Below are positions 1 through 61,700 of a stretch of DNA of 64,000 nucleotides, piece by piece. This DNA comes from Yuukianura sp. NJ FZ-2021. Lineage: Eukaryota. The notes beneath the pieces were generated by a model. The model was not told the origin of the DNA. It saw only the letters and a list, made by a program, of their open reading frames with translations, and did no database searches. The position numbers and the translations under genes are program-made. The DNA is taken from the NCBI GenBank assembly GCA_046563655.1, contig CM102286.1, forward strand, positions 806,001 to 870,000, read 5' to 3'. The stretch's first letter is position 1. Every line of letters begins with the position of its first letter.

Positions 1-1367
1 AGTTCCAATATCAGAGCAAATATTTATTTCCCTCCCAATTTCATTTTGAATTCTCCGCAAATCCACTTCTTTTCCCTCTCCTTTTTCAAATGCATACAAA
101 ATTTGTTTGCCCGTCGTCAGCTTGGTCAAGCACAAGCAGGTTCAGCTTTCTCTGAAAGCAAAGCTTAAACCGAAAACTTTATTCAAAAAAGTAGTTTTTC
201 TAAAAAACCTTATTGTGTATGTCTGCCTTTTTTCAAAAAAGTTCCAATTCCGAAATGTAACACGGAGTTGTACGAGGCTATTGAAAGTATGGACGATCCT
301 TAGTGAAAGCTTTCTCTGAGAAAATCGATAGTTTTCGTTCCATTTTCTTCAAAATAAGGAGCCCACTGCGAGTCTCGAACTCACAAAAAGTTAAAACGCT
401 TTTCCAAAACTAACAAAAACTTTGGCCATAAGATAAAGATAATTTTAGTACAGCAAACGCCCTTTACACCACGCCACCAACCGCACCATCATCATGTCAC
501 ACATTCAAACTTTTTTAAATTTCCTAAACTTCTCAAAACAAAAATCCTTTTTCAAACGCCCGACTGCCTAAAATTTCAAAATTCAAGCAGCCTCAAATCA
601 CCTTTGATGAATAATAGGCCGCAATTAGTCGCCGGGAATCTAGCTTTTCAATTTCAAACTTTCCCGCACACAACGCCGCGGTGTGCTGGTGGTGTTCAGG
701 TGTAGTCAATGCTAATTGCCCAGCATCAAGAATACTGTTATTGGTCAACCATAAAATCCAGTACATTCTTCTGCGCCTGCGTCATGCTCAGGGTGATTCT
801 GGCGGTTTCATTCAAAATCAAACGTTTGGCGCGGTTTTCTTTAAATCTCTTAACAGTTTCAAACCAATTGCATTTACTGTAAGTGTTTCTCCCTCTTTAC
901 AAAACACCCTTGATGAAGATTAATGGTCCACATCACACCGTTTCCATTCTGCTACCGCCCACATCCAGCCCCACCAAATTTTACGGCCCCACCACAGCCC
1001 CACTACCACCCTTCTACTCTCCGTAAACAGCCCATCGATCACTCATTTACTCCACGGTGGCTTTCCAACGTTACACAACAAGACAGCATCTGAGGAAATC
1101 ATCTCAAAACAAAATTGAATAGAACCCGGGAAGTTTCAAAATCAAACTCCCGCCTTGTCTGCGTTCACAAAAGAAGTTTTAATGATGTGATTAAAATCAG
1201 TAGAACGTGAGAACTGCTCTGTACTTTGCAGCAGTAGAGGCTTATTGATTCCTTGGAGCCAAAAAGCAATTAGCCCAGGAGGAAGGAACAATCAAAACAA
1301 GAAGATGAGCCTCATGTTTACACACCTTCACAAACTATGCTCAAATCACCCTTCCGCACCACCATCA

Positions 1368-1480: not shown

Positions 1481-4400
1481 ATTTCGCACAAATTTTGAAA
1501 CTTCCAAAAATCTACTTACGGCGGCTCAATTTCTTCACTAATTAAGTCACAACAGACTTCGGAAGCTTCGAATTTCCAACACAAACATGAATCTCAAACT
1601 ACGCAGAAAAGAAAAACAATGTCTAAATTTTCCAAACAAAAATTTAGGGAAAAAAAACCTTCACTTTTTTTGTTAGCAAAAATGGCAGTGAAAATCAACT
1701 ATCGAAGAGCAGACGCAAAGTACACGAAATTTTTCAGTGAACAAAACATAACCTAATCGCCTGATTTCAAACTATGAAAAAAGTAAACCGTTGCCTTAAG
1801 GTATACAAAGAGAGCCCTTAAGTCCCCTCTCATCATCCACTTTTTTATTTAAAAAAAAACTAACTTCCGAGCCTCCGGCATTATTTCCAGATTCGGCTAA
1901 AGTGATTGACTTCTTTTCAAACAACTTTTTAATGAAACTTTTTTTTCAAACTACTTTCAAAGCACTTTCTAGAAATAATGTCGACGGGTAAAAAAAATTC
2001 AAACCCTTAATAAAAATTTTCTAAAAAATTTGCAAGTTTGATTAAATTTTTGAATGCACATGAATTTTTGTGTGTACAAAAAACTAACATAAAAATTTAA
2101 AAAAGGATAGAAAAAAGTACAAAACGGTAATTCTTAAAATCAGGAGAAAACACAGGGATTTTGAGCGTTGTAAATTGATCCCGCAGAGCGTACTTTCTCC
2201 TGCCCAAATGAAATATTGCTCCTCACAACGTCGTTTCCTGCAGCACAGGTGCTTTACCTCCTAAAACATAAATCATCATTCTCTTTTAAAGCGTTTTACT
2301 TTTCAAAAAAAAAACTCCCGTTTAGTTACAAACTTTCCCACAAATCGCGTGTAGAAAAAAAACACATGACAAAATTCTCGGATCCAACGCGTGTAAAAAC
2401 ACACATGACAAAATTCTCAATTCAGAAGAGATTCATCACTCCAGCAGCAGAACTGGAGAAAACAGTTTGAAAATTCCGCTTTAATACACCACATACACTA
2501 ACTGCTGTGCAGCAGTTGCAACTTTTCCCATCTCCCCAACTACGTCCCGCCAAAAAAATTCCAAAAATTCGGTGAAAGTTCGGAAGAGAGAAAGTTTTGT
2601 CGTTTGGATCATCTTCTACTGCTACTAAAGAGGACACACAATCCCAAGAAATATGGATTGTTACTACAAACAAACAATTTCATGAATTTAACGAACCATA
2701 AATGAGAACAAACTGTCCAACAACCTCTACACACCTCACTCTTCCTTTTTCCAAGAAAAAATCACAAATCTGGGTCACATGATTCAGCCGACACGTACAC
2801 AAACTACGTCCCGACGGCAAAAATTTCAAAATTTTGTTTAAAACTTCCGCTCTAAATACTTTCGTAAGCTGCGTACAATATTTTGGACGGTTTTTAGAAA
2901 AGCATTTGTAATGTTTTCTTTAGAACAATTTGAAAAGTTTTGTTCAAAAACACGCAGGTCCGTTTTGAGTAATCGAACTAAAAACTTTGGCTTTGAATAA
3001 TTCATTAATTGAATAAAACTAAAGTAAACTGCAACATGAACACTGATCCCTCTGTTCTGTTCTAAAAAAAAGTTTTCAAACTTTGTGCTCTTTTTTTCCA
3101 TCGTTTAAAACATGTTCAGCTTGCACTTTCAAAACTTTTTAAGTCCCCGCCCAAGCTCTCCAACTATCTAATGCCTTCCCAGTTTCACAAATGGAGTCGA
3201 GCCGAAAGCGCCAAATTCGCTTCCATTCAAACTTTTAAAAAAGTTGAATAAATTCAAAAAACGAGTTGAACCTTTTTAATTACACCCACCGCCTTGTGTT
3301 AAAAGAAACATATTGTTCCATCACACTGTTAGATTCAAACAAAAGAAAAAAGAAGCCGTTTTCTTTGTTCTAAAGCTGTTTGCCATAATTTTAAACACCG
3401 CAAAAACCATCTCACTCCCTCCAAATTCAAAAGTCCCGCTTCCATTTAAGGCTGGAAGCAGGGCCGTAACAAAACCAAGATAAAAATTTACATCTTCACA
3501 AAAAGTCACCCGCCAAAAAAAAAAAAACTTTTTCACTACTTTTGTATTTGAGATGCTCTTTTACTACTGAAAATTTTCTAGGCGTTCACAAACATTTCAA
3601 AGAAAGTTGTGCTGCTTGTTCCCTCCAAAAGAAGAAATCTGATTGGAAGTAATAAAATTGAAAGAAGCCTTTCATCCCATGTCAAAATCTCATGGCACTT
3701 GGCCCACTCGTGTGTCCAGTACTAGGCGAAAAGGCAGCGCCCAAGATTTCAATCAGCCCCCCCCTACGAACCCCCCCCCCCCACTCTTTCTGGACAAGAG
3801 CGAAGCCTTTTGTTAGTTCCCAGTCAAGGATTCCTTCCGGAACAAAAAATTTCAAATCATTCGCTGTTCGCAAAAAAAGAAGGAAAAAAAATCCTCGCCA
3901 AACTTCGGCAACTAGTTGATTGAAACTCACTTTTTAAAAAAAAAAAACGGAGTTCAATGACTTTTGTGCCAATTTTAAACTTCCCGATCGGCAACACTTT
4001 TCGCGTAAATCTCAAATTCGGAAGTTCAAAACTTTAGAACAGAAATTCCTCAAAAATGAAAATTCTCCAAAATCCAAATTCCTAAAATTTCTCTCTAGCT
4101 CATTTTGCCTTTTCTGTTCAGATGTTCGAAAATGAAGAAAAATTCAAAATTTGAGGGCCATCCTAATACTGAAAATCGCAGTGTATATCCAAGAAGCTTC
4201 CTTTCCTAAGATCCAGGAACAAAAAATGGTAGAGAATTGTGCTTTCTCGCTGATCAAAGTTATTTGTTCAATTGGATAAGTATCTGCTAAGATCAAAAAG
4301 TGTTTGGAAAGTGATCGGGTGTATCAAAGCCTACACTTTCTCCTCTTCCAAGGATCTCTCGCAAACTCTTCCTGTCTCCAGATAGAGAAATGGAAGAGAA

Positions 4401-4878
4401 AATTAATTCGAGTCGACAGAAACATGAAAGTTTCACACATCCGACTGTCTGCACAGAGACAGATGGGATCTGATCCCACTGCTCCGCTTTTACTTTCCAC
4501 TGAAACGACAAGGGAGTTCTAACGTGATCAAACGAGAGTCTCTCCACAGCTCCAGCATCTCAACACTTACACTTTCACTTCAGCTCCATCCAGAGCTAGA
4601 AGTTAAATATTTAACTTTTAGGCTAAAAGCTAAAAAAACTTAAATAAATTTAAATAAACCCTAAACTAAAAAAACGTAGAAGCTAAAGAAATAAAGTTAA
4701 ATAAATTTTTTATAGTTTATTTAAATTAATTTAAGTTTTTTTAAATAATTTAATTAATTTAAGATAATTTAAGTTAATTTAGGCTAAACTAAATTTTCTT
4801 TTTCAAAGTTTAACACGCCGAATGAGATGCACTCTCAAGGCGTGGGAAAAATTTGAAATTTTGAAACTTAACTATCCC

Positions 4879-4996
4879 GGCTGGTTGAAGTAAACTTTAG
4901 TCGTGCTAATTGTACCTCCTAGGTATTATTAAGTGGAATTGGGTTAACTGGGAGGTACAATTAGCACTAATGAAGTGTTCGTCACTCCAACCAGCC
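4879..4996 (+). other. Long imperfect hairpin near the left end of the hAT element
   Basis: GTGCTAATTGTACCTCC (4903-4919) is the perfect reverse complement of GGAGGTACAATTAGCAC (4951-4967), extendable to 20 bp with one U-G. Outer stem GGCTGGTTGAAG (4879-4890) pairs with CTCCAACCAGCC (4985-4996) with one mismatch. Confidence 0.75.
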
Positions 4997-5440
4997 AAGA
5001 AACTTACAACTAATTAACTACGCTATACCTATATCTAAAACTAACCATTTGAAACAAACCACACATTCAACATCTTCCACGCATCCATTCACTCATCGTC
5101 CACACATACAAAGGTAAGCACGTTCACACACTACAAACTAAATTAACTAATTCTACTTGCTACATTATTTCTAAAGCTAATTAACCTAAAAGCTAAACAT
5201 TAATTGCAACATTCACACTATTCACAGGTACTCAGTCGCATTCACTCATCACATCCAGAGGCAATCAAACACAATCACTCATAGTCATTCGTCCACACCC
5301 ATCCAAAACATTCACTCCATCCATTCGATTCATTCGTCCACGACTCACGGTATATTAAATCTATATATAACTAAATGTAACTAAACATAACTACTAATTA
5401 CTAAACCTAACTAATTAACTGTACTTATCATTCATTCAGG

Positions 5441-5552
5441 TCAGCCACTCTCCATTCAGCCCCAGCCACTCGCCATTCAACCAGTCATTCACCCTTCAGC
5501 CAGTCACTCTCCGTTTAGCCGCAGTCACTCTCCATTCAGCACCAGTCATTCG
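5441..5552 (+). repeat. ~20-21-bp tandem repeat (CAGYCACTCTCCATTCAGCC-like) in a putative 5'UTR exon of the exonuclease gene
   Basis: About 5 degenerate units between an acceptor (TTCATTCAG, ends 5439) and a donor (ACACAG/GTACTC, ~5627). Confidence 0.6.
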
Positions 5553-5781
5553 TCAACATCCAGCCAACTTACACCCGACATCCGATCCTCTCACACTTCA
5601 CATTCATTCAGTCACAACACAACACAGGTACTCAATTTGAATTCATTCACGCACACATTCACGCTTCTACAAATCATGCTAAATCTAACAATACTCATTC
5701 ATACAGACCTCAGTCACTCCGATTTGAACCATCCACGCTCGCAGCCATTCGTCAACATTCACCCAAAGCCAAACTCGAACG

Positions 5782-6852
5782 ATGTCGTCCATCCAGGAAG
5801 CCCAAGTAAGCTAAAAAATAGTAACCTAACCTAACCTTAATTTAAGTAAGTAACCTAACTAAGACTAACGTAACTAATTAAGTACCCTAACTAAGACTAA
5901 GGTTTAAGGTAACTAATTAAGTAACTTAACCTACCTAACACTAAAGTAAGTACCTTAAACCTAACTAAAACTAAACTCTAACCTGAAACTAATAATTTTG
6001 TTTCCTTTGTAGGAACTAGTGTTGAACTGGTCAGCTGGTACTGAACGAAGCGAGCGCATGGAGTACCTCAAATCCTACCTTGACACCTTAAGCTATGATG
6101 AAGTCAGAGGAGTTATGCAATTATGTAAAAGGGCGAAGCGACGCAAGATTGTCCCCACCACACCGAATGTCGCTAACGCTCCGGCAGTCCCAGGGGAACC
6201 TGCGGCAGACCGAGCGTTAGTGGCTCCGGTGGAAGTGGAGCGTGAAAGGCCCTGGTGGAGTCAATTCACAGAAGCAGAGATCGTTGCCTTAGATTGCGAA
6301 TTCGTCTCTCAAATAATCGGACAAGTTGGTAGAAAGAAAAAATGCAAGCAAATCCTCGCCTCAGTAGCCATCGTCGACTACAACGGTGAAGAACTGTACC
6401 ACAAAACCGTTCGAAGAGCCCCAGGAACCTACCATGTGACTCAGAAATCCACTGAAATGAACGGAATCGGCCGAAGGTCACTTGAGCATGGAGATGCAAC
6501 ATTTGAGCAAATTCAGGCTGAAGTCCGCGAAATATTGGATCGAAAGTTGATCATAACAGTGGGAGGAGTGGGAGACTTTATGGCTTTGGATATTGGGCCT
6601 GTGGCTGATTACGAAACGTTCGACTTACAGCGTCACTGGTACCGTCAGGTGCTAAACACCGATGGTGTTTTGGTTGAACACCCAATGGCACTGAAGAAGA
6701 TTTATGAGATCTACTTTCCGAATGAGGAGATTCAAACTGGGGTGCACTCTGCCTTGGAGGATGCGGTAGCCACCATGAAAATCTTCAGGGATGTGTATCC
6801 TGTTGTTAAGACTGACAATGTTAGCTCCAAAATTAACCTCAATCCGTTTTAG
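5782..6852 (+). CDS. DEDDh-family 3'-5' exonuclease (REX4/ISG20/RNase T-like), ~287 aa; exons 5782-5805 and 6013-6852
   Basis: ExoI IVALDCEFV, ExoII GGVGDFMAL and ExoIII HSALEDAVATM motifs. ATG at 5782 (MSSIQEAQ) splices in phase 0 via CAA/GTAAGC (5806) and TTTCCTTTGTAG (6012) into ELVLNW..., joining ORF 6019-6852. Basic NLS-like KRAKRRK. Confidence 0.88.
6169..6224 (+). other. Paired-9mer hairpin H1 (inside exonuclease CDS)
   Basis: GTCGCTAACGCTC [CGGCAGTCC] CAGG-GGAA-CCTG [CGGCAGACC] GAGCGTTAGTGGC; outer stem has two G-U pairs; GNRA-type loop. Confidence 0.8.
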
Positions 6853-6946
6853 CTTAGCATTGTTTCGTAATCTCCGTGCAACTGCTAATTTAATTAAACA
6901 TGAATTTGTTTATCCTGAAATTCAGCGTACTCACCACAAACTTGAG

Positions 6947-7000
6947 AGAAAAATGAAGGGTCCGCCGAGGTTCTAACCTGGTCTGCCGCTTCTCCTTCCT
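6947..7000 (-). other. Paired-9mer hairpin H2 (between the convergent stop codons)
   Basis: Minus strand: ...GGAGAAG [CGGCAGACC] AGGTT-AG-AACCT [CGGCGGACC] CTTCATTTTTCT. Confidence 0.75.
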
Positions 7001-7018
7001 AAATATTGTTTAATTTGT

Positions 7019-9357
7019 TTAACTAATGACTTGAATTTCTTCGTCTACCTCGATTTCATGGTCTGAGTTCGAATCGTCCTCATAACCTAAGTCCATCTCC
7101 TGCTCTGGTGTTGCAGATCGAGGTTTCATTTTCGTAGTCTTGGCCCTTAACACACGGTAGCAGAAGGAAAGTTTCACCATTCTCTCGTGTGTCAAACTGT
7201 TCCTACGCTTGGTCTGTATGATTGGAAATGTGGAAAACATGCGTTCAATTGACGCAGTTGTTGCTGGTGCTCGGTACATCGTCCCCAACAGACGAATTAG
7301 GGTTTGTGGAACGGCAGGTTGGTGCCGTCCAACTTCTTCCCACCATGTTTCTGGCTTGATTGAGCCGATAAATCCGTTGGCCATGAGGTACGGTGGGAAG
7401 TATTCCTCATCTCCAGAGGCCAACAAAACCGCAACTTTTGCGTATTCCGGGTTCATAACTTGAAGCTTCATGATCGTCGCTGATCTAGTTGCAGGGGTCA
7501 AATGCTCACCTAGAATACAAAAAAAAGTACATGAGGAGGGAGACAGCGGCAGTCCCTGCGTAATGCAGCGGCAATCCCTGTTTCCCTGCCGTAAAGGCAC
7601 TGGGCTAACCTACCTCGATATTTCGGATGGAACAAATACGCCACTAGAAAATCCTCGTTGACACAGCGCTCCATTTTCTGGACAATCATTTCTTTCTTGT
7701 GCTTAAGACAATCTTCCACCATCAGGCAGCACCAGTAGTGATAAGCGGTTCCAATGTCGCAGTGATCTTTTTGGCACTATGAATAAGAATATCAATCAAA
7801 TAACCAGACTTAGATTTGACTAAATCCCCTGCCGAAAACCCACATCCAAATGCTATAGTTACGGTGGGGTCTGGGGTGGGTCTGCCGCACCTGGTTGGGG
7901 TGGGACCGCCGCACATCCCCGCATATCCCCTCGTCTTCTCCTATGTTAAGACTGAATTTCCTTACCAAGTTAATGTAATGAGTAATTCTGTCCAGCTGAT
8001 CGAATAGATCTTTTGCATTCCTAAACAGTCCGTAGTTACTGGCAACTTGACGAACCGCTTCGTCCAGAACATGATCCCCCTTCGCATCTTCTTCAAAAAT
8101 GGTGTTGTAAATGTGCCAGTTTTTTATGAAAGATTCGACGCATGCACGATGGGATGTCCAACGGGTGGCGTTTGGTAGTTTCGGTCGAACTCCATTATAA
8201 ACTTTCAAATAATTCCGGGCCTTGTCCACGTTCCTGAAGTAGTTGTTTACCTTTGAAACAAACGAAAGTAAGGTACAAGGTGCGGGAGTCCCACTAAAGT
8301 GCGGCAGGCCCACCTTTTACTTTAAAAACATAATTATTTATGTACTAGTAAGTGTTATTACCTGCTTAATGTAACCAATTATTTCGTTAGGGATTGTTTC
8401 TTTACAGACTATGTTCATCATGTGAGCAGAGCAGCCGTAAACGAGCATTTCCGGGTATTTTTCTGCACAGAGCCGGCGTAATGCTAGCATGGTATTACAG
8501 TTGTCGGTAACGACGGCAGTGACGGTTGTCTCCATGGACTGACATATCCGAATTGCAGCTTCTAATTTTTCAAATAAGTACTCGTGCGTTTTTTCTTCCC
8601 CTTGACATTCCTCGCTGTTCAAAAAGTAGGGTTTACCGTTCGCTAAAATACAATGTGAAACAATGGGCTCCTGGAAAATATTGCTCCAGCCGTCCTGCAC
8701 TAGGGTGACTTCTTTTCCTTTTACGTTTTCTTTCATCTCAGTATACAAGTCATGGTAGACTCTATCCAGTAGAACCCCGCGAAGAGCCTGATAAGATGGT
8801 GGAGTGTATCCAGGACGGAGACTTGAACAAAATTCTTTCCAGACAGTTTGGTTTGTCGCGTTGAAGGGTATACCGAGTGCGTACCAAAACCGGGCAGCAA
8901 GGAGATCCAAGTTTTCTTTTTCTTTTGGACTCGTCTTGATGCAAAATGATCCGACTTTTGGCTGGAGTCCTGATTGTTGTTTGCGGGCACTGGTGCTCGC
9001 TGTGGGTAGGGACTGCCGTGCCAGTATTTCGTTACTGGCAGAACTGCCGCTACCCGAGCTGGATGGTGACGTTACAGTTTGAACAACCATGACTTCATCG
9101 ATCAACTTTTCACTGTCATCCAAACTAGCTGCTTCCTTAGCCTTTGCACACTTGGACAAATGAATTCCCATTCGGGTCGGATTTGGACTAACGTCTTGAC
9201 TACAGTAATTGCAGATTTGTTTCTTGACCCCATTCCGTACAGTCTGTGTAAACACAGCTCGGATATGAGCGTTGGGTCGACCCCCTCCCTTGCCTCTCCC
9301 ACTTCTACCGATTGTCGGAATGGGCCTTGTTCCTGTAGCTGACGAACTTGCCGACAT
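7019..9357 (-). CDS. hAT transposase, ~644 aa; exons 9357-8362, 8250-7966, 7776-7614, 7509-7019
   Basis: N-terminal BED-type zinc finger (CNYC...HLSKC). Catalytic DGWSN and VTDN motifs, CxxH (CSAH), RW motif (NATRWTS), and C-terminal hAT dimerization region with catalytic E (WW...ASIERMFS). All three introns are GT-AG and the exons join in frame (KQ/VNNYF, INL/CQKDH, KYRG/EHL) with no internal stops. Confidence 0.93.
7537..7587 (+). other. Paired-9mer hairpin H3 (transposase intron 3, antisense)
   Basis: AGGGAGACAG [CGGCAGTCC] CTGCG-TAA-TGCAG [CGGCAATCC] CTGTTTCCCT; G-U pairs in both stems. Confidence 0.8.
7873..7920 (-). other. Paired-9mer hairpin H4 (transposase intron 2, sense)
   Basis: Minus strand: GGGGATGTG [CGGCGGTCC] CACC-CCAACCA-GGTG [CGGCAGACC] CACCCC; outer stem is weaker and bulged. 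Confidence 0.7.
8273..8320 (+). other. Paired-9mer hairpin H5 (transposase intron 1, antisense)
   Basis: GTACAAGGTG [CGGGAGTCC] CAC-TAAA-GTG [CGGCAGGCC] CACCTTTTAC. Confidence 0.75.
9004..9055 (-). other. Paired-9mer hairpin H6 (transposase exon 1, low-complexity linker)
   Basis: Minus strand: GGGTAG [CGGCAGTTC] TGCCAGTA-ACGAAA-TACTGGCA [CGGCAGTCC] CTACCC. Confidence 0.8.
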
Positions 9358-9490
9358 TGTTCAGTTTTTAAATGAAGTAGTTTGCTGGCTGAGCACAACA
9401 ATTTTCGATTTGAAAATCGAGTCAAGTCAAGAAATGTCTTTGTTCAGGGTGGAAACAGAAGCACTGATTATAAAAACATGTGATGGCTTA

Positions 9491-9546
9491 TTGGAGTGGC
9501 TCGTCGGCAGTCCAATTTCCGTTCGGCAGTCCACGAGTCACTTCAA
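9491..9546 (+). other. Paired-9mer hairpin H7 (upstream of the transposase ATG)
   Basis: TTGGAGTGGCTCGT [CGGCAGTCC] AAT-TTCC-GTT [CGGCAGTCC] ACGAGTCACTTCAA; all three non-Watson-Crick stem pairs are G-U on the plus strand. Confidence 0.8.
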
Positions 9547-12500
9547 ATTCACAAGCCCGGGAATTTCAAAATCTTTAATTTTCTTTAGGTTTATTTAGTT
9601 TATTTAGTTTAATTTATACTTTCTTTAGCCTAAACTAAAACAACCTCCTCCGCGTTAAATATATATAGTTAAAGAAACATAACGTAGTTTATTTAACTTT
9701 ATTTAAGTTTGTTTAATTTATTTAATTAATTTAATTAATTTCAATTTATTTAAGGTTAAACTAAAAAAACCTCTCAACCCCTAAATAAACATAGCTCTGG
9801 CTCCATCACTTTCCCGCCATATCATCCACTTTCACCTAGCCTAAGACACGCTAACAGCATTTTTCAGTTTCAAAATAATTACAATTTCCAAAGAAATTGG
9901 CCACAAACTAAAATTTTTCACGAAAACCCAAATTCCTTGGAAAAACGGGCGAAAATGGTGAAAAAAAAGGAAAAATTTTTTTAGGCCAAATCTCTGCCGT
10001 TTATCCCGAAACGCTTCTCCGAATCATAAAAATCGCGAATTTGCCAAACCCGTCTAAAATTTCGCAATAATTTTTGCAAATTAATGGATGTTATGAGCAT
10101 CACGCACTCCCTTTATGTAAACATGTAAATATTCATGGTGCAATTAAATCTTAACAAAACACTAAAATTCACGCCCCCTACAACCCATCTCCTCTCCGCC
10201 TCTCAATTTATTTTCCGTTTTTGCAAATCTCGAAATCAAAAGATCTCTTTGTTCTTCCACCTCTGCGTAAGTTGTACAATTAATGCACTGCTTGAGCAAC
10301 CAACCTTAGCTCACACCTTTCCGCTAACAGTTTCATGTTCTGTCCCAATTAATAACCAACTTAACATTAACTCTTGTGCAATTTAAGAAAAAGTACAAGT
10401 CACTCCAAATTTGAAATTGACACTCTGATCGTCATTCTTTTTGGAAAGATCAGCAGGGTGACATTTACTTCAACCACGCCTGCTCTCCACTTCCATTTGG
10501 AAACATTGTCTCCAAACTAACTCTCAAAAAGGAACAAGAGGAAACAATTTTCCGAAAAAACCTTTGAAGAACTTCCAAAAATGTACAAAGTGCATAACAG
10601 CAGGCATCAATCTCCCCCTCATAATGAGAGGCTCCATGATTTTCCAAGAAAAACGCAACTACATACCTCCACCCACCTAAAGTTATAAAAGTCAAAGATC
10701 AACATTCAACTCAACATAGGCTGAGTCACATTAAAAACAAAGTAACTTTTTCAAGTTTTCAAAAATTCCGCTTCCTCTGCTTTGTCTGAAGTTTCAAAAA
10801 ATCTAGGCAACTGTTCCTAAATACTTCACTTCCACTGTGTTTTTGTTCATTTCTAAAATAAAACGTGGAGCATATAAGTTGATAGACGGGAGTGGATCAC
10901 AGGTGCATAATGGAGGGGAAAAACTAAACTCTTTTTTCGTTTCAAAAAAAAAGTTTAAAAAAAATTGAAAGAAAAACTCTCCCTCATGCACCTGTACCTC
11001 TGACTTTTTTTTTTATAAATAACACAAAACTCCGTCTCGCCTCATTCACCAACTTAACTAAGAAAAACATCTTACGCATGAAACTTTCAAAAAAAAGCGT
11101 ACCTCATCTCATAACCCTTCACTTTAGTAACAAATGCATCCGGTCTCTTTTCAAACGAAAAAAAAATACAAAGATAAAATAAAAATTGAGAAAAAATTCC
11201 CAAAATAAATCAGAAGAATACAAAGGTTGTTCCTTAAAGAAGTTAACTACGACTAAAACAGGCAAAATGTTGCAAGTTTTTAATTAAATATATATTAATA
11301 TATTTTTTTTATTCTTTTGTTTGTATACAGTTTCAGATTTGTCACGTGACACGACTAACGTCAAAGCATATCATTCACATCCATTCATGAGTCTAATGAA
11401 CTTTTATACCAACAACATAAAATACCTTCAAATTAAAACTGTTCTATTTTTTTTAAACTTTGAGAGTGAGTTGCCCCTCCATAGTTCATGGTGGGGCAGG
11501 ATATGCCCTGCAGCTCTTGTTTTCTCAACTCCCCAGTCACTTCCGTTGCTTCATCACTTAAAAAACACTTCCATCTTCAATTCCATTGTTCTAAAAATTC
11601 ATCTTAACCCACTTCCATCATTTCCACGAACACAACTAACACCATTCAGGGTCCACTCTAAACCCCTTCTATCTCTGAACTCTCATCTTCCAAGTACAGG
11701 GCGTTGGCCAGCACAACTCCCCAGTAGTTCCAGCATAATTGAATCCTGTTCATTGTCTTCTGGACCCACTTCACTCCATTGTCAGGAGAACTCTGTTGCC
11801 AAGAGACACTAAATAATAGTCAAAGGAAGTCAGAAGTTCCCTCCATTCCGAGGAGTAGTGAGGCCCCTTTGTCAACCTTCCATCTTAGAACATACAGAAG
11901 GCCTTGTTGTTGTTGTGCTCGACTAAGCATGAGACTCAGACACAACTGGGCACCACAACAACACTCTACTAAAAAAAACTCATCTCTCCACAACCTTCTG
12001 TCTAAATTAAACTCTCAAATTTCCCACCATTAGGAAAGGAGCCATGAAATTGGTTAATTTACGCTCCTCCAATCACTCCATGTTATCTTTCCGCTTCCAG
12101 TTTCAACCCAAAAACCAAAACTAACCACGACATTTTACACGAAACTAAAACACAAAAGTAGAACACAAAACCAGAAAAGTGAGCACAAATGCCCCACCAT
12201 AGACACCCAAATCCAATCAAATGTTCCTAGGGATTTTAGAGACCAAATTAGATTAACTCATTTCAATCAAAGGATTGTTTTCAGAGACTCCCAAACTTTC
12301 CCCAGATTCACTTCCACTTTCTCCTTTTCCCTACGGTTAGGTTAACATCAGGCTACGTTTACGTTAGGTGTAGCCTAACCTAACTTAAACGTAAGTGCTA
12401 ATCCTCCCTTCACAAACTCCCGTTCTCCCATTAATCTCCACAAATTTCAAACAGGTAAAACTTTTCCTATTTGTATTCTCCCGCTTTCTCCGAGGATCCG

Positions 12501-22713: not shown

Positions 22714-25298
22714 TATGAGGGGAGATCGACTGCTTTTCAATAGGATTTGCTGCAAGATTTTTTTAAAAAACACAAGCAAAAATTCCTTGCAGAAAATAGG
22801 GACGAACATTTTCTGCAAGCTTTTTCTTGCAGAGAACGGAGGCGTTGTTATAAGAAGTTTGCGCAAAATCGAGCCGTTGTTATAAGAAACATGCGGAAAA
22901 TCCAGATGTTGTTATAAAAAGCTTGCGGAAAATCGATGCGTTGTTATAAAAAGATTGCGGAAAATCGAGACGTTGTTATAAGAAACATGCGGAAAATTTG
23001 AGGATTTGGAATTTTGAAAAATTCGGCTGAAATTCAACTTTTGGATATATTTGCCTTGCCGAGGATTCACGCGTACTCTACCGTCTTGAAATGTTGGTCT
23101 AGTGAAAAATTGACCTGTTCTCTAACTTTTTGACGTGACCAAATTTTTAAAAATTCACTTGTACACTTACTTTTTGAGGAATTGGAATTTTGAAAAATTC
23201 GGCTGAAATTCAACTTTTGGATATATTTGCCTTGCCGAGGATTCACGCGTACTCTATCGTCTTGAAATGTTGGTCTCGTGTCAAAATTGACCTGTTCTCT
23301 AACTTTTTGACGTGACCAAATTTTTAAAAATTCACTTGTACACTTCCTTTTTGAGGAATTGGAATTTTTAAAAATTCAGCTGAAATTCAACTTTTGGATA
23401 TATTTGCCTTGCCGAGGATTCACGCGTGCTCTACCGTCTTGAAATGTTGGTCTCGTGTAAAATTGACCTGTTCTCTAACTTTTTGACGTGACCAAATTTT
23501 TAAAAATTCACTTGTACACTTCCTTTTTGAGGAATTGGAATTTTGAAAAATTCTGCTGAAATTCAACTTTTGGATATATTTGCCTTGCCGAGGATTCACG
23601 CGTACTCTATCGTCTTGAAATGTTGGTCTCGTGTAAAATTGACCTGTTCTCTAACTTTTTGACGTGACCAAATTTTTAAAAATTCACTTGTACACTTCCT
23701 TTTTGAGGAATTGGAATTTTGAAAAATTCAGCTGAAATTCAACTTTTGGATATATTTGCCTTGCCGAGGATTCACGCGTACTCTACCGTCTTGAAATGTT
23801 GGTCTCGTGAAATATTGACCTGTTCTCTAACTTTTTGACGTGACCAAATTTTTAAAACTTCACTTGTACACTTACTTTTTGAGGATTTGGAATTTTGAAA
23901 AATTCAGCTGAAATTCAACTTTTGGATATATTTGCCTTGCCGAGGATTCACGCGTACTCTACCGTCTTGAAATGTTGGTCTCGTGAAAAATTGACCTGTT
24001 CTCATAACTTTTTGACGTGACCAAATTTTTAAAAATTCACTTGTACACTTCCTTTTTGAGGAATTGGAATTTTGAAAAATTCAGCTGAAATTCAACTTTT
24101 GGATATATTTGCCTTGCCGAGGATTCACGCGTGCTCTACCGTCTTGAAATGTTGGTCTCGTGTAAAATTGACCTGTTCTCTAACTTTTTGACGTGACCAA
24201 ATTTTTAAAAATTCACTTGTACACTTCCTTTTTGAGGAATTGGAATTTTGAAAAATTCAGCTGAAATTCAACTTTTGGATATATTTGCCTTGCCGAGGAT
24301 TCACGCGTACTCTATCGTCTTGAAATGTTGGTCTTGTGTAAAATTGACCTGTTCTCTAACTTTTTGACGTGACCAAATTTTTAAAAATTCACTTGTACAC
24401 TTCCTTTTTGAGGAATTGGAATTTTGAAAAATTCAGCTGAAATTCAACTTTTGGATATATTTGCCTTGCCGAGGATTCACGCGTACTCTACCGTCTTGAA
24501 ATGTTGGTCTCGTGAAATATTGACCTGTTCTCTAACTTTTTGACGTGACCAAATTTTTAAAAATTCACTTGTACACTTACTTTTTGAGGATTTGGAATTT
24601 TGAAAAATTCTGCTGAAATTCAACTTTCGGATATATTTGCCTTGCCAAGGATTCACGCGTACTCTACCGTCTTGAAATGTTGGTCTCGTGAAAAACTGAC
24701 CTGTTCTCTAACTTTTTGACGTGACCAAATTTTTAAAAATTCACTTGTACACTTCCTTTTTGAGGAATTGGAATTTTGAAAAATTCAGCTGAAATTCAAC
24801 TTTTGGATATATTTGCCTTGCCGAGGATTCACGCGTACTCTACCGTCTTGAAATGTTGGTCTCGTGAAAAATTGACCTGTTCTCTAACTTTTTGACGTGA
24901 CAAAAATTTTTGACAAAATATCACTTTTACGTTTACTTTTCGAGGAATTCTAACTTGGGAAAATTCAGCTGTCGTAAAATCTTAAAAATGAATTATAATT
25001 TATAAAAACGTCTCGATTCTCCGCAAGTTTCCTATAACAGCGGCTCGATTCTTCGCAAGCTTTTTATAACCGCGGCTCGATTCTCCGCAAGCTTCTTATA
25101 ACAGCGCTTCGATTCTTCGCAAGCTTTTTATAACAGCTCCTCGATTTTCCGCAAGCTTCTTATAACAACGTCTCGATTTCTGCAAGAAAAAAACTTGCAG
25201 AACATGTTCGTTTTGATTTTCTGCAAGGAAATTTAATTGTGTTTTTTAAAAAAAGCTTGCAGCAAATCGCGCTGAAAAGCAGTCGATCTCCCCTCATA
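22714..25298. mobile_element. Non-autonomous TIR DNA transposon, IS3EU-like termini, with long repeat-containing TIRs and an internal satellite
   Basis: TATGAGGGGAGATCGACTGCTTTTCA ... TGAAAAGCAGTCGATCTCCCCTCATA. 6-bp duplication AGAAAG at 22708-22713 and 25299-25304. The ~280-bp arms contain mirrored ~35-bp subrepeats (GCGGAAAATCGAG..GTTGTTATAA). No ORF. Confidence 0.85.
23000..24970. repeat. 176-bp tandem satellite, 11 full copies plus a partial copy
   Basis: Unit start GAGGA(A/T)TTGGAATTTT at 23000, 23176, 23353, 23529, 23705, 23881, 24058, 24234, 24410, 24586, 24762 and a diverged copy at 24942; copies are near-identical. Confidence 0.97.
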
Positions 25299-42834: not shown

Positions 42835-43469
42835 GGTTCCAGGTCATAAGCGCCTAACCAAAAAGCGCCTCTCCAATAAGCGCCTCTCAATAAGCGCCTA
42901 AAAAATAAGCGCCTCCATCCAAAAAGCGCCTCCACCCAAAAAGCGCCCCCATCCAAAAGGGCCTAACCAAAAAGCGCCTCCAGGCAAAAAGCGCCTCCCA
43001 TCAAAAAGCGCCTCCAGCTCCAATTTAAAACCAGGTTAATTTATTCAAAATAACTGAGAGATAAATAACTTAACCTAACCTAGAATTGACATAATCCTAA
43101 CTAAACATGAGAAGAAACACTTGAGACGTAATCAACATTGCGAATTTAAAAAAAAAAACTAACCTAACATAACCTCGAGACGTCATCATTATCGCGAAAT
43201 TTAACCAAACCTAACACCGCGCCTTCGGCGCGGGAACCTATAGACACCTAATTGAATGAACCCAAATAAAGCAGGTTTTTATTGGAACTGGAGGCGGTTT
43301 TTAATTGGAGGCGCTTTTTGCATCGAGGCGCTTTTTGGTTAGGCCCTTTTGGATGGGGGCGCTTTTTGGATGGAGGCGCTTTTTGGATGGGGGCGCTTAT
43401 TTTTTAGGCTCTTATTGAGAGGCGCTTATTGGAGAGGCGCTTTTTGGTTAGGCGCATATGGGCTGCTAC
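42835..43469. mobile_element. Mutator/foldback-like non-autonomous element with repeat-built TIRs
   Basis: ~200-bp inverted arms made of AAAAAGCGCCTCC-type subrepeats. Direct duplication GGAATGAGAC on both flanks (42825-42834, 43470-43479; 10-11 bp depending on the boundary). Interior has AACCTAAC runs and a CCGCGCC-TTC-GGCGCGG hairpin. Confidence 0.8.
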
Positions 43470-58757: not shown

Positions 58758-61700
58758 CTATTGATTTGATTGATCGTAGTCGCCATAATAGTCGTAGTAG
58801 ACTGTTTCGTGGTTTTCATTTGAATCTCCATCGTCAACGTAGTAGTACTCTCCAGAATTGTAGGGATGACGACCATGCGTAGAGACGGATTGGTCATTGG
58901 AAAATCGTCTTGTAGCATATCGTGACCCCGTTTCCTGTCCTGTGCCTTGGCGTGTCTTGCCCTTCCTGACCTTGACAACTCTTCGCCTGGTGCCACTCGA
59001 GCCACTTGACCCACCGTCCCGCCCGCCAGCAGCCCCACCTTCTCCGTCTGAAACAGTCACAGAATTGTATGAGGTATGTTTGATCTAAAGTATTTTTTCA
59101 AAATCAAGGCAAAACAATTACGCCTGCCAGCATGGTTGCGCCTTCGAGTCTTGCGCAGAATTTTTCTGGAACTTCCATGTCTTCTGTCTCCCGAACCTCG
59201 CACAGCATCAGTCCATCCACCACGATTTTGTTCCGACTCTGATCTGCTAACTTTTGATTCCTCACCAGTTCTGCTTCTTGATCCGGATCCAGTCGCTGAT
59301 TGGCTCTCGCCGGTCTGAGCTGCAGTTCCTGATTGGCTGCCAGTTGTCTGAGCTGCAGTTGATGATTGGCTGCCACTCGTCTGAGCTCCAGTCGACGATT
59401 GGCTGCCACTCGTCTGAGCTCCAGTCGATGATTGGCTGCCACTCGTCTGAGCTCCAGTCGCGGATTGCCTGCGACTGGTCTGAGTTGAAGAGACTTCAGT
59501 ATCTTCATCAGTTACAACCTCAGCGCGTTGGCCATTCTTTGATTTGCCAGTTGGTGACACTGGAACCCAACCTTCGCTTGAATCTACATACATATATTCC
59601 GTCTGCGTCACAACAACCTTCTTACGGCGGCCCTGTTTCCTTGGTCGAATATACTTTCGCCTCACAACTTTTCTTGTACGTCCCGAACCGCGGCGGGATT
59701 CGCCATCATGTTCTCGCTGGTTTCCGCCTTGCCGTCTTATTGAAGTCCGGTTGCTCACAGATACAGTTTCGTAATCACCCTTCTCATTTGCAGTCGAACT
59801 TCCTTGCCCGGTGGAATCGACGACGTTGACGTTACCTTCTTTTTTGTTAGCGGATTGGTCTGATACGGTTTTGCTTTCTCCAATTTGCGATCCTACTTGT
59901 TCGGTACGAGATGAACTGTATTTACCGCTGCTAGCCTGTTGACCTGAAGCTGTAGATGAATCTGTTCCAGTTTGCGATCCTACTTGTTCGGTACGCGATG
60001 AACTGTATTTACCACTGCTAGCCTGCTGACCTGAAGCTGTGGATGAATCTGTTCCAGTTTCCGATCTTACTTGGTCGGTACGCGATGAACTGTATTTACC
60101 ACTGCTAGCCTGCTGACCTGAAGCTGTGGATGAATCTGTTCCAGTTTCCGATCTTACTTGGTCGGTACGCGATGAACTGTATTTACCACTGCTAGCCTGC
60201 TGACCTGAAGCTGTGGATGAATCTGTTCCAGTTTCCGATCTTACTTGCTCGGTACGAGATGAACTGTCTTTACCACTGCTAGACTGCTGACCTGAAGCTG
60301 TAGATGAATCTGTCTCAGACTTAACTGTTTTTTCTTCAGTTCTCTCACGGTACACCTCCGAACCTTGTTGAGTGTTTTGGTCTTGTTTTGTGATACCGCG
60401 GCCTTTACCAGTGATCGAAGAATTCTTGGACTCATGGACCGTAGTAGTAGACTCGTCTGTGGTGCTTGTCGTTGCAGAATCAGATTCGTCTGTCACGTAG
60501 TAGAATTTGACTTTTTTCTTTTCTGGTTTCGGTTTCGGTTTCTTGTGGAGCACTATAATTTCTTCCGTTGTCTCCGATTCATCAACATTTTCTTCTTCCT
60601 GGACAATTTTTGTGTATTTAGTTGAAGACTTCGCAGTCTGTCGGTCCTTTTCGTTAGTTTTCGCTGTAGATCCCTCGCCAGTTACCTCAGTTTTGGTGGT
60701 CACGACCGTGGTGTTGCGGTCAAAATTTCTTTGATCTTCCTCCTTGCCGCCGGTTTGGTTGGTTTTTTCAGTAGCGCTTGTGTTAGTCGTTGAAGCTTTT
60801 TCCTTAGCGTTAGTTTCGGTTACCATTGTGGAAGTGGAGCGACCTTTGCCTTGTTTTTTCTGATCTTCAACTTCTACTTTTTCTACAACTACTTCCTTTT
60901 CCTTGGCGCCATCTTTTTTCACTTCTGCGGTTTCTGCACCACCGCCACTGCCACTATTAGATGAAGTCGTGGTTTTCGTTTCAGTAGTGACATCTTTCGT
61001 CGCACTATCTTTATCCGATTTTTGGGTTGCAGAATTTGTAGTACCCTTGCCTGTGTCACTTGTGCTTGTAGTTGTGGTTATGGTTGTCGTCGTGACGGTA
61101 GACCCGGATTCTGGGTCATTTGATGTGGCACTTTTAGCTGAGGTTGTACTCTTTGTTTCATTGGTGGTGACAGCTCCCTTTTCCATTTGGGTATAATTAC
61201 CAGATGCTTGGCTTGTTGCGCTTTTAGTACCCTTGCTGGTGGCGCCATCTATGGTGGTGTTGGATTCCTGTGTAGACTCAGATGATTCTACTTCATATTC
61301 CTCAACAATTTCCTCGTAACTTCTGTCATTGTAACGTGGATTTTTCGGTCTGCGTGGTCTGCCAATAGGTTTTTTCTCCTCAGTTTCTTCTTCAAACACT
61401 TCTTCTTCAGTTATGATTTGCTTCGAACCCGTTTTGCCTTCACGCCATTTACCACGTCTATCTTTCTGGTTGCTGCCCCCTTTACCATTTCTGTCAACCT
61501 TGGTGTCAAACTTTTTGCTTATCGTAGTCGAACGTCCACTTGAACGTCCTGTTAAACCGCTTTTTCCTGTCTTTCCGTCATTGACGTCCTCGCCATATTC
61601 AACTTCCTCCTCTTCATAATATGCCACATTTCCTTCATCTTCTTCTTTGGTTTGAGAGGTTTTTCCCCGGCCGTCACTTTTCCCATATTTAGGGCCTTTA

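Follow-up and report, generated by a model that had tools for sequence, protein, structure and literature searches.

Cut-and-paste DNA transposons are thought to require their ends and a transposase alone. hAT elements use a DDE enzyme on duplex ends, and their subterminal transposase-binding repeats (AAACGG in Ac, GTGGC in Hermes) lie in duplex DNA within a few hundred bp of those ends. In the prokaryotic IS200/IS605 elements, the Y1 transposase TnpA recognizes subterminal ssDNA hairpins, one per end. In 7SK, a host snRNA, a single GAUC-GAUC repeat site self-paired by Watson-Crick pairs is bound by HEXIM dimers. The CTE of type-D retroviruses and the NXF1 intron is a two-fold symmetric RNA stem-loop whose lobes are bound by a dimeric NXF1:NXT1 platform (PMC4330390). 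The CTE is about 130 nt long, occurs once per genome, is always in the sense orientation and has two separate internal loops.

Within a 64-kb stretch of DNA, hereafter the window, lies a hAT transposon carrying seven hairpins, W1 to W7, each built on a twin 9-mer (Table 1). As with the CTE, each would be a cis-acting symmetric stem-loop on a mobile element, with direct repeats on the two arms making the symmetry. Unlike the CTE, the unit is 40-60 nt long, has one self-paired 9-mer core and is present in 7-9 copies on both strands of a DNA transposon; it has no sequence likeness to the CTE and no Rfam match. It resembles hAT subterminal repeats in that a short word occurs many times in both orientations and is presumably read by an element protein, but the word is absent from the ends, always paired inside a hairpin, and found in introns, linkers and untranslated gaps. 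A short self-pairing word on both hairpin arms is also the arrangement of 7SK, where a dimer reads it, whereas the hAT hairpins are mismatched, multi-copy and in a transposon. Imperfect single-strand hairpins in a transposon are shared with IS200/IS605, in which they are protein recognition sites. In full-text literature searches outside subscription journals and Repbase reports, the listings and abstracts contained no description of such a hAT/hairpin/exonuclease element or of its 9-mers.

The host transposon is complete, and its ends are AT-rich words. DNA contigs from three runs, all from one sample, contain the empty site, joining 4582 to 9800 and sharing 8 letters. The 8-bp target-site duplication, the short TIRs and a transposase with a C-terminal hAT dimerisation domain, a BED finger and DUF659 place it in the hAT superfamily, as the original prediction had it. 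Two convergent genes are present, one for this BED/DUF659/hAT transposase and one for an ISG20-like exonuclease. Pfam matches in the transposase were DUF659 (PF04937, E 1.1e-18) and the hAT dimerisation domain (PF05699, 22.2 bits, cut-off 21.4); exon 1 holds a CxxC...HxxxC finger read from the sequence, and homologues carry BED-type or DUF659 names. Its splice sites were called from sequence rather than RNA. The second gene is predicted to encode an ISG20/REX4-like DEDDh exonuclease, with a Pfam RNase_T match (PF00929, 25.1 bits, cut-off 24) and ISG20L2 (E 8.1e-6) and ISG20 (2.7e-4) as best PDB matches. We infer an upstream exon for this gene because the N-terminal motif of the family begins before the Met at 6058. 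Pfam gave no match in the exonuclease N-terminal region or at the transposase N-terminus. A word-based protein search found two exonuclease relatives and a full profile search 2109, of which 49 were at E ≤ 1e-30 (proteins alone); only 10 sequences fitted the pattern of a peptide-signature scan, two with an A-V...A-V linker. The profile search found no relative of the exonuclease in the viral contigs.

Table 1. Positions in the window of the hAT transposon, its genes and the seven hairpins. Hairpin extents were taken from RNA folds.
Feature	Position	Strand	Parts	Location or basis
hAT transposon, complete, 5209 bp	4591-9799	.		Empty site and ends read
8-bp TIR CAGAGCTA	4591-4598		Complement at 9792-9799	
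8-bp target-site duplication GCTCCATC	4583-4590 (left copy)	.	Right copy 9800-9807	
ISG20/REX4-like DEDDh exonuclease gene (predicted)	5782-6852	+	Putative CDS 5782-5806, 6020-6852; intron 5807-6019	
hAT transposase gene	7019-9357	-	Exons 9357-8362, 8250-7966, 7776-7614, 7509-7019	
Transposase introns 1, 2, 3			8251-8361, 7777-7965, 7510-7613	GT-AG borders and frames read against homologues
W1	6169-6224	+	9-mers 6182-6190, 6203-6211	Exonuclease coding linker, sense to exonuclease
W2	6947-6999	-	9-mers 6959-6967, 6980-6988	Between both stop codons, 20 nt beyond transposase stop, sense to transposase
W3	7537-7587	+	9-mers 7547-7555, 7569-7577	Transposase intron 3, antisense
W4	about 7869-7921	-	9-mers 7879-7887, 7903-7911	Transposase intron 2, sense
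W5	8269-8324	+	9-mers 8283-8291, 8302-8310	Transposase intron 1, antisense
W6	9004-9055	-	9-mers 9010-9018, 9041-9049	Transposase coding linker after BED finger, sense
W7	9491-9546	+	9-mers 9505-9513, 9524-9532	134 nt upstream of transposase ATG at 9357, antisense

We counted CGGCAGWCC with up to one mismatch. The window contained 18 matches, compared with 6.59 ± 2.35 after shuffling, and none of 100 shuffles reached 18. Fourteen of the matches (eight exact, six with one mismatch) formed seven same-strand pairs within 6182-9532, each pair inside one hairpin, with inner spacers of 12, 12, 13, 15, 10, 22 and 10 nt from W1 to W7 and a start-to-start spacing of 17-31. The remaining 58.8 kb of the 64-kb window held no further twin pair, against seven within the 5.2-kb element. 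Seven such hairpins, their placement (three transposase introns, an upstream site, the 3' gap and two coding linkers) and their confinement to the element had all been predicted and were confirmed: RNA-fold extents agreed with the predicted starts, and placement agreed with GT-AG borders and with frames read against homologues. Hairpin strands were also said to alternate, which is true of the window (+ - + - + - +). The motif was absent from 4591-6181 and 9533-9799; there is no clustering near both ends, and we rejected hAT subterminal transposase-binding repeats as the identity of these sites.

Each hairpin has (G)YGGCAGWCC(C) twice in direct orientation, once on either side of its stem; the two copies sit opposite one another and pair through G-C, G.U/G.A, C-G, A.A, G-C, U.G/A.G and C-G, and C.C-type mismatches bound this core. 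The core is a two-fold symmetric mismatched duplex between outer and inner helices of free sequence, as had been proposed. Although their sequences differ in each copy, the three outer and three inner pairs nearest the motifs formed in all seven hairpins, in line with the earlier claim of stems that vary yet pair across spacers of 10-22 nt. When both 9-mers were barred from pairing, the stems in 7/7 cases still beat 400 random in-element placements of the same geometry (fractions 0.000-0.022). Four outer plus three inner pairs were found in six of the seven hairpins, compared with 1 of 126 chance twin motifs in viral contigs; these contigs, where scanning for the twin pattern produced at least 120 isolated chance matches, served as controls alone. 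Whole-hairpin z values from W1 to W7 were -4.8, -0.4, -3.5, +0.5, -2.6, -5.1 and -3.9, so that, taken as entire segments, W2 (z -0.39) and W4 show no unusual stability. W4 has the weakest outer stem in the window, and its G-rich complement gives a better fold. A bulge-helix-bulge fold was examined by hand and rejected.

Fold energies were -17 to -42.5 kcal/mol with RNA parameters, compared with -5.6 to -15.5 kcal/mol with DNA parameters. The hairpins could nonetheless act in DNA, as transient ssDNA or cruciforms bound by an oligomer of the BED-finger hAT transposase or by a host DNA-binding protein, thereby tethering transposase or marking chromatin. BED fingers bind DNA, this transposase has a dimerisation domain, and, since orientation is irrelevant to a cruciform, sites on both strands would be explained without antisense RNA. 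Under DNA parameters, however, the folds are weak and three of the seven were no better than shuffles (z -0.2, +1.4 and -0.6); the G.T, A.A and C.C mismatches of the 9x9 core disfavour extrusion; and the motif is missing from the subterminal DNA, the usual binding place of hAT transposases. Copy number points the same way. The depth of the interior (5006-9523) was single-copy (47.8 in X1), whereas that of the ends reached 1720 (contigs). Because the termini are multi-copy while the interior with hairpins 1-6 is single-copy, terminus-only derivatives seem to have spread without these hairpins, which suggests that the sites are dispensable in cis. We regard action in DNA as possible but unlikely.

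Like the stronger folds under RNA parameters, a comparison of strands speaks for a single-strand fold, probably in RNA: the motif strand folded better than its complement in four window copies, equally in two and worse in one. A fold of one strand should favour G-U over A-C mismatches, and stem mismatches had been described as mostly G-U on the motif strand; a strand-neutral count gave the window 9 G-U to 4 A-C (p = 0.13) and the relatives 4 to 17, an outcome that depends on the counting rule. The expected bias was not significant, which counts against a fold of one strand.

We then compared the window with related elements. A model trained on the seven window copies alone gave seven matches at E ≤ 1 in 240,713 nt from 80 related loci. 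Six of them fell in L001 and one in L005, both metagenomic elements; the remaining 78 loci gave none. Its best score in viral contigs was 27.7 bits, against 36-46 bits for the window copies, which are training rows. L001 has the same two convergent genes, its transposase and exonuclease each being 43% identical to those of the window. It contains nine twin sites (eight clear and one weak), and L005 contains one. Strand order in L001 was + + - - + - + - -, so alternation is not a trait of the family. The W1 orthologue (L001 6964-6990) lies in the exonuclease linker with both 9-mers in the same reading frame, and the W6 counterpart (L005 546-576) occupies the same post-BED place with both 9-mer frames kept. 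The counterparts of W4 (L001 2449-2474) and W5 (L001 2017-2042) lie in orthologous introns in the same orientation; the remaining sequence of both introns is unalignable, the W5 site being the sole alignable block of its intron. In L019, a more distant hAT-plus-exonuclease element, no twin sites were found; the L019 repeats form a plain 25-nt tandem array. A de novo search of the 80 related loci for other twin words gave nothing convincing.

Every site occupies a place tolerant of insertions (introns, untranslated gaps or low-complexity linkers), as would be expected if very small mobile palindromes inserting there, or mutation striking such places, had left a functionless by-product. Against this, positions and frames are kept at orthologous sites at 36-43% protein identity, although the introns and linkers around them have lost all conservation of sequence, and no copies occur in the 58.8 kb outside the element, whose interior is single-copy in contigs. 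For the latter two reasons, a MITE-like or palindromic mobile insertion was rejected, and the by-product explanation as a whole is already largely refuted and very improbable. Related elements from other organisms carry these hairpins at matching positions, and the hairpins are therefore very likely a functional part of the hAT that had gone undescribed.

Covariation was examined in a set of 16 sites. In this set, 73.2% of cells were paired, compared with 56.8% after shuffling and 32-46% with slid partners. Double-change cells numbered 62 against 26.9 ± 4.0, a value reached in none of 500 shuffles, and the covariation score was 0.426 against 0.161 in shuffles. The second inner pair formed in 15 of 15 sites with four pair types. 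The stems therefore covary, which upholds the view that the pattern is conserved structure and not duplication, and the hairpins form a symmetric stem-loop supported by covariation, as a CTE-like protein-binding RNA hairpin would. Rfam 15 gave four weak matches in region 4400-10000; all fell short of the gathering score and lay off the twin hairpins.

The structure is weaker in L001. Its stems are 2-5 bp and its hairpins about 14-17 bp, and stem energies were mostly not better than those of random placements (fractions 0.03 to 1.0). The main signal may therefore lie in the paired 9-mers themselves. This, with the far greater conservation of the 9-mers than of the stems and their start-to-start spacing of 17-31 bp, would suit plain double-stranded sites, in which tandem half-sites about two helical turns apart are read by a sequence-specific protein and the palindromes are incidental. 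A protein binding the duplex would not, however, impose covariation with several pair types on the motif-adjacent pairs, and a symmetric dimer bound to duplex DNA would not be expected to favour direct repeats within a palindrome; we consider such sites improbable. The short L001 hairpins also bear on whether these are small-RNA precursors, miRNA-like or siRNA hairpins, with the same word on both arms so that products would target the complementary word on opposite-strand transcripts. In the window, stems of about 19-26 bp (core included), the three hairpins within short introns and a complement of every site on the other strand fit such precursors; the L001 length does not, and Rfam miRNA families had no match to the hairpins. 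A role as small-RNA precursors is about equally improbable. Taken together, structure, symmetry, confinement to the hAT and presence in relatives, which it had set as a test, stand from the original prediction, with stems much weaker in L001, while strand alternation and G-U bias do not.

The core also resembles an unconventional splice site. IRE1 cleaves loops of consensus CNG|CNG, to which CGG|CAG conforms, and a start-to-start distance of 17-31 nt is reminiscent of mini-introns of the XBP1/HAC1 type; W3, W4, W5 and the L001 site at 3292 could each place every 9-mer in a loop with a 3-bp closing stem. Yet such a 3-bp closure of a 9-nt loop is impossible at 13 of 17 sites, most sites cannot form the two separate hairpins with 7-nt loops, and many L001 motifs have T or A as their first base. 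Half of the sites are antisense, and splicing at the two sites in coding sequence would excise 21 nt, preserving the frame, and 31 nt, breaking it, for no apparent reason. IRE1-type splicing is extremely unlikely here.

In our judgement the chances are about even that the hairpins are a selected, lineage-specific cis element of an exonuclease-bearing hAT family, acting as a single-strand fold, probably RNA, that docks a symmetric factor. On this view, a dimeric factor with two-fold symmetry would dock on the twin 9-mer duplex of a single folded strand, most likely RNA transcribed from both strands of the two convergent genes, and the element's own exonuclease or transposase is a candidate binder. 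The hairpin would then govern what becomes of the element's transcripts, through stability, 3' trimming, splicing or export, and would not be required in cis for cut-and-paste. As half of the sites are antisense to their host gene, a role in RNA requires antisense or read-through transcripts.

A more specific and quite unlikely version is a hAT lineage with its own RNA-level control. Symmetric hairpins every few hundred bases on transcripts of both strands would be read by the ISG20-like exonuclease with its conserved N-terminal extension, or would halt it; sense and antisense RNAs would be trimmed or shielded, blunting dsRNA or small-RNA silencing of the convergent pair. If true, it would be the first description of a cut-and-paste DNA transposon equipped with a module of structured RNA and nuclease.

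The interior of this hAT adds a second enzyme gene and seven to nine copies of a structured element, which has stayed in the same introns and linkers although the proteins have diverged to about 40% identity. Such retention within introns implies that the structured element matters to the transposon's success. If the hairpins are RNA docking sites, they would allow control by a DNA transposon over its own transcripts to be tested, and would supply a compact symmetric RNA-protein pair; if they act in DNA, they would represent a novel type of internal site for transposase or chromatin. In either case, the hairpin model provides a handle for locating this family in eukaryotic genomes.

The window was scanned for CGGCAGWCC, the 9-mer present as two direct copies in each hairpin. 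With up to one mismatch allowed, 18 matches were found in the 64 kb, against 6.59 ± 2.35 in shuffled windows, and none of 100 shuffles reached 18. Fourteen of these, 8 of them exact and 6 with a single mismatch, lay between 6182 and 9532 as seven same-strand pairs in the strand order + - + - + - +, while the other four were unpaired, carried one mismatch each and were distant from the element pairs. RNA folding placed the pairs in seven hairpins (W1 to W7, numbered by ascending coordinate) with one layout, in which an inner stem-loop is bordered by the two 9-mers and these in turn by the arms of an outer stem; the inner segments measured 12, 12, 13, 15, 10, 22 and 10 nt, respectively. The three transposase introns each contained one site; a further one lay upstream of the transposase, another in the gap that separates the two stop codons, and the low-complexity linker of each gene carried one. 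The scan and folds thus bore out the original prediction of seven paired-motif hairpins, including their placement, and no pair occurred elsewhere in the window.

Coordinates of the hAT element, its predicted transposase exons and the twin-motif hairpins
Feature	Position	Strand	Basis
hAT element	4591-9799		empty-site joint
Transposase exons (predicted)	9357-8362, 8250-7966, 7776-7614, 7509-7019	-	GT-AG borders, frames, homologue alignments
W1 hairpin	6169-6224	+	RNA fold
W2 hairpin	6947-6999	-	RNA fold
W3 hairpin	7537-7587	+	RNA fold
W4 hairpin	about 7869-7921	-	RNA fold
W5 hairpin	8269-8324	+	RNA fold
W6 hairpin	9004-9055	-	RNA fold
W7 hairpin	9491-9546	+	RNA fold

The stems had been described as differing in sequence while still pairing, and indeed the three base pairs flanking each 9-mer on either side were formed in all seven copies with sequences that differed among them. 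With both 9-mers barred from pairing, each copy was compared with 400 equal-geometry placements drawn at random within the element. The fractions of placements at least as good were 0.000, 0.022, 0.000, 0.003, 0.005, 0.000 and 0.013 for W1 to W7, so that the stems beat random placements in every copy even without 9-mer pairing. Whole-segment z-scores were -4.8, -0.4, -3.5, +0.5, -2.6, -5.1 and -3.9, indicating that W2 and W4 are not unusually stable as whole segments.

The borders of the host element were given by an empty site: contigs of three DNA runs (one sample) link 4582 to 9800, with 8 letters common to both sides. The target duplication is GCTCCATC and the terminal inverted repeat is CAGAGCTA. 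Sequencing depth over the interior (5006-9523) was single-copy (47.8 in run X1), and it rose to as much as 1720 in the left 400 bp and 331 in the right 270 bp. The flanks are themselves repeated (depth about 200-350 vs 47.8), and the empty-site version had a depth of 233.7, which indicates that the hAT inserted into one copy of a repeat. A single-copy interior with multi-copy termini hints that W1 to W6 may not be required in cis for transposition, although the high terminal depth could also stem from unrelated AT-rich repeats.

The element encodes a minus-strand transposase with a CxxC...HxxxC finger, DUF659 and a hAT dimerisation domain, whose nearest database relatives share only about 35% identity. 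Convergent with it on the plus strand is an ISG20/REX4-like DEDDh exonuclease, in which a conserved N-terminal extension is followed by a basic stretch, as in many relatives; the extension had no Pfam match. The exonuclease family is sizeable and unannotated (49 representatives at E ≤ 1e-30, proteins P0029-P0178), and many members have PWW preceded by a variable and often repetitive linker and also share an N-terminal motif. This motif (..LNW.A...) starts before the Met at 6058. The coding sequence seemingly begins at ATG 5782 in a small upstream exon; the predicted intron 5807-6019 consists almost throughout of CTAA/CTAAC-like words, and similar intron-like stretches lie at 5100-5440 between C/A-rich exon-like pieces.

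Relatives were sought by aligning transposase exon 1 with 17 homologues and scanning metagenome contigs. The pattern matched 384 times; a relative is encoded at 92 of these matches, and 80 loci were retained. The 9-mer scan of these loci yielded 47 matches in 23 loci, with pairs in two only, L001 and L005, so that the proposed check of related hATs did recover the hairpins. L001, the best locus (43% identity), encodes the transposase and a convergent exonuclease 43% identical to that of the window (124/290 residues). It carries eight clear twin sites, at 404(+), 636(+), 1120(-), 2017(-), 2449(+), 3292(-), 4097(-) and 6964(-), and a weaker ninth at 3395-3425(+) that the covariance model picked up (21 bits, E 0.0018); 16 of its 17 relaxed single-motif matches were in pairs. 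At its transposase stop codon (3270-3325), the variant word TGGCTGACC occurs twice and is followed by a degenerate third; CTG...CAG flanks every copy, making this a triple rather than a twin site. L005 (36% identity, 1.4 kb) has one twin site, at 546-576(+). The more distant L019 (hAT, 27%; exonuclease 33% over 141 residues) was without twin sites. Its exonuclease is ISG20-like and convergent, no YGGCAGWCC pairs occur in the whole locus, and its repeats form two arrays, a tandem one of 25-nt units at 2141-2225 and one of 18/24-nt units at 3267-3671.

Several of these sites are orthologues of window hairpins. In the window as in L001, about 20 codons separate the exonuclease-linker site from the conserved PWW motif that follows it, both 9-mers are in the same reading frame and the remaining linker is unconserved. 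L005 likewise shares with the window the frames of both 9-mers at the site after the BED finger. The introns that follow the DUF659 exon and its successor interrupt the protein at identical positions in the window and L001, and each holds one site in the same orientation. In the former, the twin motif was the only alignable block; in the latter, the MAFFT alignment did not match the two twin motifs to each other. That the hairpins are mini-introns of the IRE1 type is the least probable of the explanations considered. Strict strand alternation, expected by chance in 2 of 128 orders, holds for W1 to W7 but is not a family trait, since the L001 order is + + - - + - + - -; its upstream and post-BED sites are opposite in orientation to their window counterparts.

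We then aligned 16 twin sites from the window and its relatives. Paired cells amounted to 73.2%, vs 56.8 ± 1.8% in shuffles (0/500 reached it), and fell to 32-46% when partners were slid by 1-3 columns. Cells changed on both sides numbered 62, vs 26.9 ± 4.0 in shuffles (0/500), and the covariation score was 0.426 vs 0.161. The inner second pair was formed in 15/15 sites with four pair types, and the outer second pair in 13/16 with three. Among 126 chance twin motifs from viral contigs, one formed four outer and three inner pairs; a relaxed rule was satisfied by 10, vs 7/7 sites in the window and 4/9 in L001 and L005. A covariance model of all 16 sites, run over 304,713 nt, returned only those sites, the weak L001 site and one noise match (E 2.5). 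A model of W1 to W7 alone, run over 240,713 nt of the 80 loci, gave seven matches at E ≤ 1 (six in L001, one in L005) and none in the other 78 loci. L001 stems were short, and their energy fractions came nearest significance only at 636 (0.033), 3292 (0.075) and 6964 (0.095). The covariation, the chance-motif control and the model matches together show that stem pairing is a selected feature, as the claim of conserved structure had held, though conservation is greatest in the 9-mer pair. That the 9-mers act as plain duplex half-sites appears improbable, and a by-product without function still more so.

In each of the seven window folds, one direct 9-mer is paired to the other: GGC of one with GWC of the other (G-C, G.U or G.A, C-G), around a central A.A mismatch and with C.C-type mismatches at both ends. 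Read 5' to 3', the two strands of this short duplex are identical, and thus the core is two-fold symmetric. The consensus over 34 motifs from three elements was (G)-H-G-G-C-A-G-W-C-C-(C), with the L001 3395 row placed one base off in the table.

Folds of W1 to W7 ranged from -17 to -42.5 kcal/mol with RNA parameters and from -5.6 to -15.5 kcal/mol with DNA parameters; under the latter, three of the seven were no better than shuffles. In four copies the motif strand gave the better fold of the two strands; two copies were near ties, and in W4 the complement, which is G-rich, folded better. The G-U bias reported for the motif strand did not survive a strand-neutral count (9 G-U vs 4 A-C in the window, p = 0.13; 4 vs 17 in the relatives, largely because of A/C-rich flanks). 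In both elements, hairpins antisense to the transposase gene recur along its whole length on the exonuclease-sense strand (window: W3, W5 and W7; L001: 4097, 3292, 2017 and 1120), an arrangement compatible with read-through or antisense transcripts of the convergent pair. A DNA role blind to orientation fits this placement equally well, and a DNA hairpin or cruciform site, though unlikely, deserves some weight; we doubt strongly that the hairpins are precursors of small RNAs.

Other repeats and sequence features were observed in the window. Just within the left end (4871-4998), where the element is multi-copy, lies a near-perfect palindrome of 128 nt that lacks the twin motif (RNA fold -58.4 kcal/mol, z -6.8); several diverged copies of it were present among the contigs. 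It comes after a TTTTGAAA...CCCGGC word, as W7 at the right end comes after a similar one. Strand asymmetry was strong (GC skew -0.23 to -0.34) over most of 1-34000, except in the element (6-10 kb) and at 22-26 kb. The layout at 22714-25298 is foldback-like: eleven tandem units of 176-177 nt are enclosed by arrays of 32-nt repeats in inverted orientation, with arms of about 160 nt that are 79-85% complementary. The inverted repeat at 42840-43465 has 190-nt arms (93% complementary, 246 nt between) of short GCGCC-containing units spaced 17 and 31 nt apart. On the minus strand, 59057-64000 is taken up by an open frame that spans at least 1647 codons and continues past the end of the window; tandem repeats of 33, 87 and 123 nt abound in it, and it had no Pfam match.

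The twin-motif hairpins had no Rfam match, and neither such hairpins nor a hAT with an ISG20-like gene was found in searches of the freely accessible full-text literature. They differ from hAT subterminal repeats in place and form, and did not qualify as such repeats when tested. The nearest described system is the retroviral CTE, a cis-acting RNA stem-loop that is two-fold symmetric like W1 to W7 and is read by the dimeric NXF1:NXT1 platform (PMC4330390); it is unlike them in size, copy number, strand use, sequence and host element. With middling confidence, we read the hairpin element as a selected cis element that acts as a single-strand fold, probably of RNA. The element's own transposase, with its dimerisation domain, and the exonuclease, with its N-terminal extension and basic stretch, are candidate binders. 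The mismatched symmetric core would serve as a docking site for a dimeric factor and may control the element's own transcripts.
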